64,000 bases of DNA from the NCBI GenBank assembly GCA_019057385.1, contig JAHQJS010000006.1:384001-448000 (forward strand). Reading direction: 5' to 3'. Position numbers and translations under genes: made by a program. Shown here one piece after another: positions 34,516-37,020 of the stretch. The notes beneath the pieces were generated by a model that saw only the letters and a program-made list of their open reading frames with translations, was not told the DNA's origin and made no database searches. Origin of the DNA: Candidatus Borrarchaeum weybense (GTDB taxonomy: Archaea; Asgardarchaeota; Sifarchaeia; Borrarchaeales; Borrarchaeaceae). Position 1 is the first letter of the stretch. Each line of letters opens with the position of its first letter.

Positions 34516-35343
34516 TCAGAAGATTTGCGAACTTTTTTTCTTTAAAAGCCCTGAGGCACCTTTTCTAATATCTTTTCCTTCTATCGTCTTCCTTTGAGAC
34601 GTACTTGCAATATTGGCTGCCCTTACGACAGTTTGAATGATTATATTTTCTAAAATATCTCGGAGAACATCTGGTGCATCTTGGCCTATTCTTTTTGCAC
34701 CAGCATCTTTTAGTAATCTCCTCATTGTAGTCTTTTTTAACTCATGTGTGTATAGTTTTGTTAAATCCCATCTTCTAATGAAATTTACAATAGCATCAAT
34801 GAGATCCCTTTCTCCTAATTTTCTATTTTTAGCTGCGATTTCGAGTTGAACAGCATGCACTCCTCTTGAGATCTTTCCGTGATACGATACGATATCACCG
34901 CCCATATACTGAGGTGCCTCCATAAATGCATATTCACCCTGAATATCTCTTGCTTCGAGTTCTTCACGGAGCATTTCAATATAATCAACGTCAATAGTAA
35001 CTCCACCAGACGTGCCAAATAAAACAGTAATTTCTTCGAATGATGTAATTGGTTTTTCCATACCATGAATGTCTAAGAGAAGCACTTCTGAATGAGTTTT
35101 AAGGAGATCAGTGATGATTTCTTGAATCCTCTTACGAAAAGGTGTGTCTCTCCACTTAGCCCTGTTGTAGTCTTTATCTTCACGTGAGACAGTCGCAATC
35201 AAGGCATATGCTCCAACTTCGATTGCAACTCTATATGCTATTTCACCTGTTAAGAGATCTGCACGTGGACCCATAGCATGAGGCGCCGTCAATAAGACTG
35301 GTATGTCTCCAGGAATCTCAATAAATCCTTTTAAAGTCAACAT
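34516..35343 (-). CDS. N-formylglutamate amidohydrolase-like Zn hydrolase fused to a C-terminal archaeal histone fold
   Basis: LLTAPH, ADLLTG, DYNR, LLDIHG, VQLEI; then ELKKTTMRRLLKDAGAKRI...RKTIEGKDI. ATG at 35343 has GTGGAG upstream (track start 35427). Confidence 0.85.
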   Translation of the reverse strand: MLTLKGFIEIPGDIPVLLTAPHAMGPRADLLTGEIAYRVAIEVGAYALIATVSREDKDYNRAKWRDTPFRKRIQEIITDLLKTHSEVLLLDIHGMEKPITSFEEITVLFGTSGGVTIDVDYIEMLREELEARDIQGEYAFMEAPQYMGGDIVSYHGKISRGVHAVQLEIAAKNRKLGERDLIDAIVNFIRRWDLTKLYTHELKKTTMRRLLKDAGAKRIGQDAPDVLRDILENIIIQTVVRAANIASTSQRKTIEGKDIRKGASGLLKKKSSQIF

Positions 35344-35544
35344 ATTTTTCTCCACAGACTTCGATGACCTCATAGAATTCCCTTGTGACTGCGGTGACAG
35401 AATGCAAAACTTCTTGATTACTTTCAATTCAAGGCTTATAAAAAAATATTTTATAATTGCTTTGTATTTATCTAGCGATTAAGATATTGCGAATCATCAA
35501 ACACTAACCTCATTAGACGAAATATATCTGTTTGAGGGATCGAT

Positions 35545-37020
35545 TTGGGTGTCATCGAAAATATTTGTCGTGAGTACGAAGTTGCTATCGGACTTGAAGA
35601 GGAACTGTTAATCATTTCAAAGGATGGGACACTTGTAGCTGCTGCAGACCAACTGATGGAAACTGCTGCAAGCCTATTGAACCAAGATGCCGAAAGACTG
35701 GAACGTATAATGTTGAAAATTAGGTCTCTGGATCCAGAACCCAACCTGGCACAAATTGAGCATGTGAGTTTACCGATTCCACTTTCAGAAGTTCCTTCAG
35801 CAATCACCGAAGGAAGGGCGCTTCTCTTAGATTCCGCAAAAAGCCTAGGCTATAAATTGTTTGTTCAAAGTTTACACCCTCTTGAGAGCAATCCACATCC
35901 TATGTGTGGAACTCATATCAATGTATCTGCAAAACGAATAGCTAACGAGATAATGAATCCTAAAGAGATATTAGCCGTATACAACCATCTTTGGAATCAT
36001 CTTCCAGAGCTCATAGCCTTATCTGCAAATACGCCAATCATTCAAGGAGAGAAGGGAGCGGTTAGTAATCGTGTTCTGAACTCAACTGTTCTGAAACCAA
36101 ATCCTTTTGGAAAGTTACAGATCCCTCGTCATCAACCTGCTTTAGTTCAAAATGAATACTATGGTGCCCTACGCTACTCGTTAAAAATAGGTGCACTTGA
36201 AAAAGAGCCAACAATAATCGCAAACACAACAGGACATAGATTACGCGACATTACACCGCGCGGCCCCTCTACAAACATTTCAGACGATAAGGAAGATAGT
36301 TTTACTCGAAATCGTATTGAAACAAGAATTTTTGACAATCAAAGAGAACCGAGAAGGTTAGTAGACTTATCGAGAATTGTGAGTGGGCTTGCAATTGAAG
36401 CACTGTGTCTTTTAGAAAAGGGCAGCCAAATTATTGAAAACCGTGCTCATGCTGTAAATCGAGAAAGAGCGATTTTAGATGGCATAAATGCCACTTTCTT
36501 ACATGAAAAGAATGGTTCTGTCATAGAAATTCCTGCTAGAGAAAGAGTTCTTGAAATGCTTAATCGGACAGAGATGCACAGAGAACTTCTAGGCGCAAAA
36601 CTTCAGACTGATTTGAAAAATGCAAAGACTGAAGTAGAAATAAAACGACCTCGCTTAGAAGTTGCGTATTCCAACCCTGAATTTGAACGTTTGCGAAGAA
36701 GTGGTAAAACGGTAGTATCCGTTCGCTTTGGAAAGGTTAAGAATGTTTCGGACATACGAAGTAGCAAGAAATATAAGATTTCGAGAGGTCAGACTATTAC
36801 AGGAAAACTTGGAATTGGGCTTTCTTTGACTTTTGATGAATCAGAAGCAACTCCAGGTCTAGTAACTGATTTCAAGGATGTTTTAATGAAAAACTATCTG
36901 CTGGTTTCAAGTATCCGTATTCCTCTCAATGAGTCGGATGAAATCATTGCTGCGATTTCTGAAGAAGAATACATGAGGAGACAGTTTTTTGGTGCGGATG
37001 CCTTTCCGTACTTTTTTTAA
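35545..37020 (+). CDS. GCS2/YbdK-family carboxylate-amine (gamma-glutamyl) ligase with extra C-terminal domain
   Basis: IGLEEEL, QIEH, HP..CGTHINV, LPELIALSANTP, SNR, RIETRIFD. Confidence 0.85.
   Translation: MGVIENICREYEVAIGLEEELLIISKDGTLVAAADQLMETAASLLNQDAERLERIMLKIRSLDPEPNLAQIEHVSLPIPLSEVPSAITEGRALLLDSAKSLGYKLFVQSLHPLESNPHPMCGTHINVSAKRIANEIMNPKEILAVYNHLWNHLPELIALSANTPIIQGEKGAVSNRVLNSTVLKPNPFGKLQIPRHQPALVQNEYYGALRYSLKIGALEKEPTIIANTTGHRLRDITPRGPSTNISDDKEDSFTRNRIETRIFDNQREPRRLVDLSRIVSGLAIEALCLLEKGSQIIENRAHAVNRERAILDGINATFLHEKNGSVIEIPARERVLEMLNRTEMHRELLGAKLQTDLKNAKTEVEIKRPRLEVAYSNPEFERLRRSGKTVVSVRFGKVKNVSDIRSSKKYKISRGQTITGKLGIGLSLTFDESEATPGLVTDFKDVLMKNYLLVSSIRIPLNESDEIIAAISEEEYMRRQFFGADAFPYFF

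Follow-up and report, generated by a model that had tools for sequence, protein, structure and literature searches.

An archaeal carboxylate-amine ligase linked to deacylase-type enzymes, one of them fused to a histone

Candidatus Borrarchaeum weybense, an Asgard archaeon, carries two divergent genes at positions 34516-37020 of a 64,000-nucleotide stretch of its genome (contig JAHQJS010000006.1, positions 384,001 to 448,000; hereafter the window). One encodes a zinc hydrolase fused to a histone and the other a carboxylate-amine ligase of the GCS2/YbdK fold. An earlier note on the window had read the two genes as a writer and an eraser that reversibly tag chromatin proteins. We found that the ligase represents an apparently undescribed single-copy archaeal family that is almost always encoded next to a deacylase, and that a gamma-glutamyl amide is the bond that the pair most likely forms and cleaves. 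The histone was added to the hydrolase in a single late event; a chromatin role is possible, but it does not define the system.

Conserved linkage of the ligase with deacylases

Of 400 Asgard genomes, 77, representing at least ten families, encode the ligase, each in a single copy. Outside Asgard archaea it occurs in Methanopyri, including the cultured Methanopyrus kandleri AV19 (AAM01640.1, annotated there as a TIM-barrel hydrolase), and in one Korarchaeia record. A profile of the family itself finds a single copy; a whole-genome search with Pfam GCS2 (PF04107) misses the window ligase and hence gives no paralogue count. An orthologue of the hydrolase (E < 1e-55) was found in 16 of the 400 genomes and adjoins the ligase in all 16, so the adjacency is not due to chance. 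Linkage of the ligase to an FGase-type hydrolase is conserved in six Asgard families, in Methanopyri and in a Korarchaeia record; a Methanodesulfokora record shows the pairing. The pairing of writer and eraser that the earlier note had proposed from adjacency in one genome, with neighbourhood conservation and co-occurrence as the check, therefore rests on a far stronger link.

Gene order differs between lineages. The FGase and ligase genes are divergent in Sifarchaeia and in the Asgard family f17, and form a co-directional operon in Njordarchaeia-like genomes; Njordarchaeia/Korarchaeia-like operons also encode a YheC/D-like ATP-grasp protein as a second ligase. In Methanopyri the FGase gene (43% identity) lies two genes downstream of the ligase. 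The operon there consists of an MJ0043-like gene, the ligase, an Amidohydro_2 gene and an FGase gene with a probable N-terminal winged helix (L088:8190-8927, L101:7188-7916 and L102:8204-8938).

In 76 of the 77 Asgard genomes the ligase has a deacylase-type gene as its neighbour; in the remaining one the ligase is cut by a contig end. The neighbour is of FGase type in 16 genomes, a GGACT cyclotransferase directly downstream of the ligase in 49, in many cases with a class I or class II amidotransferase after it, and a class I amidotransferase (GATase-I) directly beside the ligase in 11. The partner motifs are intact: YG(T)L and the conserved glutamate in GGACT, the cysteine and QFHPE in GATase-I, and the N-terminal cysteine in the class II enzyme (GATase-II). 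Njordarchaeia-like genomes encode GGACT–FGase fusion proteins (G024, L041:709-2055; G051, L043:676-1950), which tie both hydrolase types to one pathway. FGase-like paralogues of a length similar to these fusions were seen in several Njordarchaeia-like genomes.

The linkage counts include related genomes and are not independent; the signal lies in the replacement of the partner by unrelated folds over separate clades. Given that these unrelated partners remove gamma-glutamyl groups, and that the substrates of GGCT-fold enzymes are gamma-glutamyl amino acids and amines (PMC7022552), the product of the ligase, which the partner would then break, is most likely a gamma-glutamyl amide.

The Borrarchaeum genome itself encodes a 479-residue protein (contig C4, around 103-105 kb; L092:736-2175) whose central GGACT domain shares 37% identity with GGACT of the operon type, and similarly long open reading frames were found in each of the five other genomes searched within the class. 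We considered whether the C-terminal part of this protein is FGase-like and rejected the match as unconvincing (probability 1.4%, at noise level).

A distinct family of GCS2-fold ligases

The ligase (35545..37020, plus strand; 491 amino acids from a TTG start) was assigned by profile, alignment and predicted structure. The match to PF04107 is weak (E 3.4e-6, 27.1 bits against a gathering cut-off of 21), and all 51 homologues examined match the same profile at E <= 0.1; in total, 61 relatives were found at 30-100% identity, mostly full length. E18-x-E20, E65, E72, H124-x-N126, R257, E259-x-R261 and D264 are invariant or nearly so in the 51 homologues, which upholds the ExE, HxN and ExR motifs recognized earlier. 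The predicted model (predicted local distance difference test score (pLDDT) 90.5) best matches YbdK (Z 30.6, root-mean-square deviation 2.7, 306 residues aligned), followed by plant glutamate–cysteine ligase (GCL; Z 24.4), Dop (20.6) and PafA (19.6). A sequence search against solved structures gave no match for the ligase.

With the YbdK/GCS2 carboxylate-amine ligases (PF04107; Protein Data Bank entries 1r8g and 1tt4) the protein thus shares its fold and its metal- and glutamate-binding motifs. By curated cut-offs, however, it falls outside the YbdK subfamily, although profile and fold place it in the GCS2 superfamily: identity to YbdK is 13-16%, the NCBIfam model TIGR02050 scores 40.3 bits against a cut-off of 176.4, and the models PRK13515-13518 score 15-38 bits against cut-offs of 332-437. 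Among the 51 members, the Pup-ligase Pfam family gave no match at E <= 0.1, nor did COOH-NH2_lig or Amidoligase_2 give any. What the family adds to YbdK is an insert of about 70 residues, an SH3-like C-terminal domain and the fixed linkage to a deacylase. We found no paper on the ligase family or on the hydrolase–histone fusion, although a key survey (Iyer et al. 2009) lay outside the literature covered and may mention the M. kandleri genes.

The insert (approximately residues 185-255; 36097..36309, plus strand) contains a beta-hairpin and the invariant residues G230, R232, R239, G240, P241, T243, N244 and D248, and is a candidate acceptor-binding site. The C-terminal domain (residues 368-491; 36646..37017, plus strand) is a small SH3-like barrel with a long beta-hairpin and is confined to this ligase family. 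Both had been noticed before as an insertion and a basic, beta-rich domain of about 130 residues; the domain is indeed beta-rich, at 124 residues, but only mildly basic, with a net charge of +4 (family median, +5). When modelled by itself it again forms the barrel and hairpin (pLDDT 86). Its best structural match (Z 6.1, to SH3b/WYL/Hfq-type barrels) reflects a common arrangement and lies under the level that means kinship. The Foldseek search that the note had called for returned nothing at E <= 0.001, and the domain matched no feature in the Atlas, where its single good match was the same ligase family; structure comparisons, Foldseek and the Atlas gave no histone-reader match. A search of 1.84 billion representative proteins returned only 35, which we read as family members, fragments or spurious repeats; the profile matches P0091, P0097 and P0101-P0104, each in multiple stretches, were treated as spurious. 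As several core alignments stop at model residues 436-441, the model suggests that the tip of the hairpin folds back onto the ligase core. The domain is present in all members, also where the partner has no histone, and therefore did not arise together with the histone.

A second Asgard family with the GCS2 fold was seen at L013, L017 and L014-L018, in open frames of 1150-1410 amino acids with long beta-rich or low-complexity tails.

A zinc hydrolase with a late histone

The fusion gene (34516..35373, minus strand) encodes 285 amino acids counted from the ATG at 35373. Its longest open reading frame extends over 34516-35427, but ATG 35373 is the likely start because homologues share the initial residues and because the upstream TTG frame is disrupted by an indel in a relative (G003). 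Measured from this start, 171 bp separate the two genes (201 bp if the gene begins at the next ATG, 35343), so the head-to-head arrangement across about 200 bp described earlier holds, with both genes intact.

The catalytic domain (34756..35340, minus strand) is a zinc amidohydrolase of the FGase/poly-gamma-glutamate-hydrolase type. It matches Pfam FGase (PF05013; E 3.9e-12, 47.2 bits against a cut-off of 28.9) with the conserved His/Asp/His/Glu present, and its orthologues also give weak matches to PF05908; H32, D39, R64, D68, N70, D101, H103, Q176 and E178 are invariant in the 12 orthologues aligned. HutG N-formylglutamate amidohydrolase (PF05013) and poly-gamma-glutamate hydrolase (PF05908) have these zinc-amidohydrolase motifs in common with it, whereas the variable accessory domains and GGACT-fused paralogues of the present enzymes distinguish them. 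With the HutG model TIGR02017 the hydrolase reaches 27.8 bits, where the cut-off is 278.75. Because neither urocanase nor HutF turned up in the genome, which is rated 100% complete, action on N-formylglutamate in the course of histidine breakdown is disfavoured.

C-terminal to this domain lies a complete archaeal histone fold (34561..34743, minus strand), recognized by Pfam CBFD_NFYB_HMF (E 1.8e-9) and NCBIfam archaea_histone (53.4 bits against a cut-off of 50). The fusion was found again in eight further protein clusters (seven with a Pfam histone match and one a partial protein) and in four further genomes, which rules out a read-through artefact. Among named records, Ca. Borrarchaeum yapensis (92%) and Ca. 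Sifarchaeum (89%) come nearest, which agrees with a host of the Asgard class Sifarchaeia. The ratio of nonsynonymous to synonymous substitution (dN/dS) is 0.14-0.32 for the fused histone and 0.04-0.16 for the hydrolase domain, over few sites, and by this measure the histone is under purifying selection. The fused copies are basic (net +6 to +16).

Like the nucleosomal histones of HMfB type, the fused copy has the full three-helix fold and R10, G16, R19, R52 and D59 (HMfB numbering). Unlike them, it is joined to an enzyme and is without H49 and L62, which are absent from all nine fused copies and kept in five of the six free histones of the genome. H49 and L62 are required for tetramers, and the dimer–dimer residues are L46, H49, D59 and L62 (PMC6136690). 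On these criteria, the fused histone is expected to form dimers that bind DNA but do not stack into hypernucleosomes. The hydrolase may be tethered to DNA, since the DNA-binding residues are present and Methanopyri carry a probable winged helix. The main text of a survey of prokaryotic histones contains no enzyme or hydrolase term (PMC11390915). Elsewhere in the genome we observed three tandem near-identical histone genes (C7:666434-667946) and a histone whose N-terminal tail is rich in lysine and which is likewise without H49 and L62 (C5:100612-100797).

The histone occurs on the hydrolase in five of the 77 ligase genomes, all of the class Sifarchaeia. These five form one clade in the ligase tree (support 97/96), in agreement with the hydrolase tree (85/94), and the fusion is a single late event. 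In the ligase tree, whose outgroup sits on a long branch, the FGase partner is found on the deepest branches (Methanopyri, the Njordarchaeia/Korarchaeia clade, family f17 and Sifarchaeia) and was replaced in a Lokiarchaeia/Hodarchaeales-type clade. Hydrolases of other lineages carry accessory domains unrelated to the histone: an MTH865-like domain in family f17 (E 7e-5), an N-terminal helical bundle in Njordarchaeia-type enzymes, which matches no family and is not a histone, and in Methanopyri a probable winged helix with weak matches (Pfam E 0.003-0.05 in one of six members; best E against the Protein Data Bank 0.15). Across the module as a whole, targeting through a histone is thus not conserved. 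In family f17 we also observed a PAC2 proteasome-chaperone gene that follows the hydrolase co-directionally, with cdc48 nearby (L052:9838-10569, L066:5185-5916).

Possible acceptors of the glutamyl group

We tentatively favour a gamma-glutamyl cycle on a small molecule or short peptide, which we consider the leading interpretation while granting it somewhat less than an even chance. The ligase would bind metal-ATP through E18, E20, E65, E72, H124, E259 and R261 and, by the established chemistry of the superfamily, convert free glutamate to gamma-glutamyl phosphate for transfer to an amine. A family-specific acceptor would dock at the conserved insert, aided by the hairpin of the C-terminal domain. 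FGase and its poly-gamma-glutamate hydrolase relatives cleave at the amino group of glutamate; together with the weak poly-gamma-glutamate hydrolase and peptidase C26 matches and the ATP-grasp protein in the operon, this makes an amino acid or amine acceptor, yielding gamma-Glu-Glu or a short gamma-glutamate tail, our best single guess. The zinc hydrolase, whose linkage is observed, would then cleave the amide and release glutamate, a step that GGACT (with formation of 5-oxoproline) or a class I or II amidotransferase would perform in other lineages. The histone acquired in Sifarchaeia would force the enzyme into dimers, either with itself or with one of the genome's six free histones, and would probably tie it to DNA without hypernucleosome stacking; its role would be in localisation or regulation rather than in defining the substrate. 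More speculatively, the basic histone fold could grip a polyanionic glutamate chain.

Several observations weigh against such a cycle. Amine catabolism of the Puu type would lead one to expect an oxidase, dehydrogenase, aminotransferase or transporter beside the module, but none recurs there in the 37 loci compared. A bulky acceptor, for instance a protein, would suit both the large conserved insert and the additional SH3-like domain, and because GGACT requires only a free glutamyl group, this partner is also compatible with glutamyl-lysine on a protein. Small helical domains were gained repeatedly by the hydrolase, and two of them are (probably) DNA-binding.

In one alternative, the ligase would glutamylate a lysine or the N terminus of one conserved non-histone protein, recognized through the insert and the SH3-like domain, with the partner reversing the mark. 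We regard this as unlikely, though more probable than the other alternatives. PafA and Dop have the same fold, the insert and C-terminal domain are specific to the family and conserved, no metabolic pathway genes recur nearby, and in two lineages a gene for the proteasome chaperone PAC2 is found close to the module. However, no small tag or target gene recurs beside the ligase in the 37 loci (open reading frames of at least 65 amino acids), YbdK and plant GCL match better than PafA, none of the 51 members resembles Pup ligase by Pfam, and the PAC2 gene of Methanopyri is part of a common ribosomal/aIF2-alpha operon. PafA/Dop pupylation shares with the module the superfamily fold, a small extra C-terminal domain and a writer/eraser logic; it differs in that the eraser here is of unrelated fold, no Pup-like gene was seen and the structural match is weaker.

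The chromatin hypothesis of the earlier note, in which histones, other chromatin proteins or DNA-bound polyamines are reversibly glutamylated and the eraser is delivered by its histone fold, strikes us as doubtful. Its premise of a make-and-break pair is supported, and the fused histone is complete, basic and under purifying selection, with R10, R19, R52 and D59 kept; the Methanopyri orthologue, with its weakly matched winged helix, would add a second DNA-binding partner. Extended to archaeal chromatin glutamylation in general, with DNA-binding domains gained independently in Sifarchaeia (histone) and Methanopyri (winged helix), the hypothesis would make the Sifarchaeia eraser a histone variant that caps stacks, because the fused histone is predicted not to tetramerise; this version we consider equally doubtful. 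Asgard histones do bear other modifications: the part of a histone proteome study that was available reports methylation and acetylation (10.64898/2026.07.02.735847), and since glutamylation is not among the search modifications in that part, it neither supports nor excludes a glutamyl mark. Against a chromatin substrate, the partner is free of histone in 72 of the 77 ligase genomes, 60 of which use enzymes without a detected histone or DNA-binding domain; the ligase and its C-terminal domain are kept whatever accessory domain the partner has; the accessory domains elsewhere are not histones; and the C-terminal domain does not resemble a histone reader.

It is improbable, in our assessment, that the module makes a glutathione-like thiol, in which the ligase would form gamma-Glu-Cys, the ATP-grasp protein, where present, would add a third residue and the hydrolases would recycle the product. 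YbdK and plant GCL are the closest folds, the operon of ligase and ATP-grasp protein resembles GshA/GshB, and GGCT and class II amidotransferase folds break down glutathione elsewhere. But the ligase reaches at best 40 bits against curated glutamate–cysteine ligase cut-offs of at least 176, the operon ATP-grasp protein has no match in the window's genome, and the insert and C-terminal domain are left unaccounted for. We give very little credence to the building or trimming of the gamma-glutamate tail of methanofuran or a similar one-carbon cofactor. Methanofuran tails are gamma-linked, with the enzymes that add further glutamates unidentified (PMC8141765), Methanopyri are methanogens and Ftr is encoded in the window's genome; yet of five genomes with the ligase that were searched for Ftr, three gave no match, including one assembled as a single contig at 96% completeness, and no one-carbon genes recur near the module. 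That a generic YbdK and a HutG N-formylglutamate deformylase are merely unrelated neighbours, as the Pfam names by themselves would have it, is largely refuted by the linkage in all 16 genomes and in Methanopyri and can hardly be sustained; the HutG score and the failure to find urocanase and HutF in the genome also speak against it.

Relation to known systems and significance

Gamma-glutamyl groups are added and removed by ligase–deacylase pairs such as EgtA/EgtC, PuuA/PuuD and BtrJ/BtrG, in which a ligase is combined with a class II or class I amidotransferase or a cyclotransferase. The family described here uses all three partner types across its lineages but has no linked tailoring or catabolic enzymes that would act in between. 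It also resembles the modules of COOH-NH2 ligases with peptidases or cyclotransferases cited from Iyer et al. 2009 in PMC4431377 and known from LUZ24-like phage, with which it shares a GS-fold ligase, class II amidotransferase, AIG2/GGCT and ATP-grasp proteins; the phage module comprises COOH-NH2 ligase, amidoligase, GATase_6, ATP-grasp and AIG2/GGCT (PMC3890496). The conserved linkage of a GS-fold ligase to a deacylase that marks such modules was found in 76 of the 77 genomes. Here, in contrast, the ligase is of a distinct archaeal family, one partner is of FGase type and there is a histone fusion. By the tests run, the module belongs neither to the YbdK subfamily nor to pupylation or HutG, and appears to work like the known ligase–deacylase pairs, with an unusual enzyme–histone fusion.

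Four unrelated enzymes that remove gamma-glutamyl groups replace one another beside the ligase, and this non-orthologous swapping allows the chemistry of the family to be read. Because M. kandleri is cultured, the acceptor can be sought directly. Conserved, selected fusions of an enzyme and a histone are rare, and whatever the substrate, this one shows an Asgard lineage docking an enzyme by means of a histone fold. Were chromatin the acceptor, archaeal histones would bear a new mark, served by a dedicated writer and eraser.

The intergenic region and neighbouring genes

The divergent intergenic region (35374..35544) is largely conserved in the genus. It contains a perfect 8-bp AT-rich inverted repeat at 35436-35456 (17 of 500 shuffles reach an 8-bp arm), possibly back-to-back TATA boxes or an operator; a sigma-70 promoter scan at the locus gave matches at chance level. 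The corresponding region of G003 (L062) has an insertion of about 48 nucleotides that looks by eye like an IS200/IS605 end. Compared with G002 (L060), synonymous divergence along the pair is 0.15 in the hydrolase domain, 1.29 in the histone, 0.12 in the ligase core and 0.70 in the C-terminal domain, which, on few sites, suggests a recombination tract over the middle of the pair.

The genes for YjbQ, a small GTPase and inositol-phosphate synthase beside the pair were excluded from the system, as their synteny holds at the genus level only. At 29773-30455 a gene that by eye is YjeF-N-like (NAD(P)HX epimerase) is split into two open reading frames, by a frameshift or sequencing error; G004 has a single frame of 246 amino acids (L061:15657-16397). 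A TnpB/IS605-like fragment, also recognized by eye, lies at 40286-40993 and is missing from the syntenic G004 locus. Finally, 26393-28477 encodes a long coiled-coil protein of 694 amino acids with a probable winged-helix end, which is conserved in the genus.

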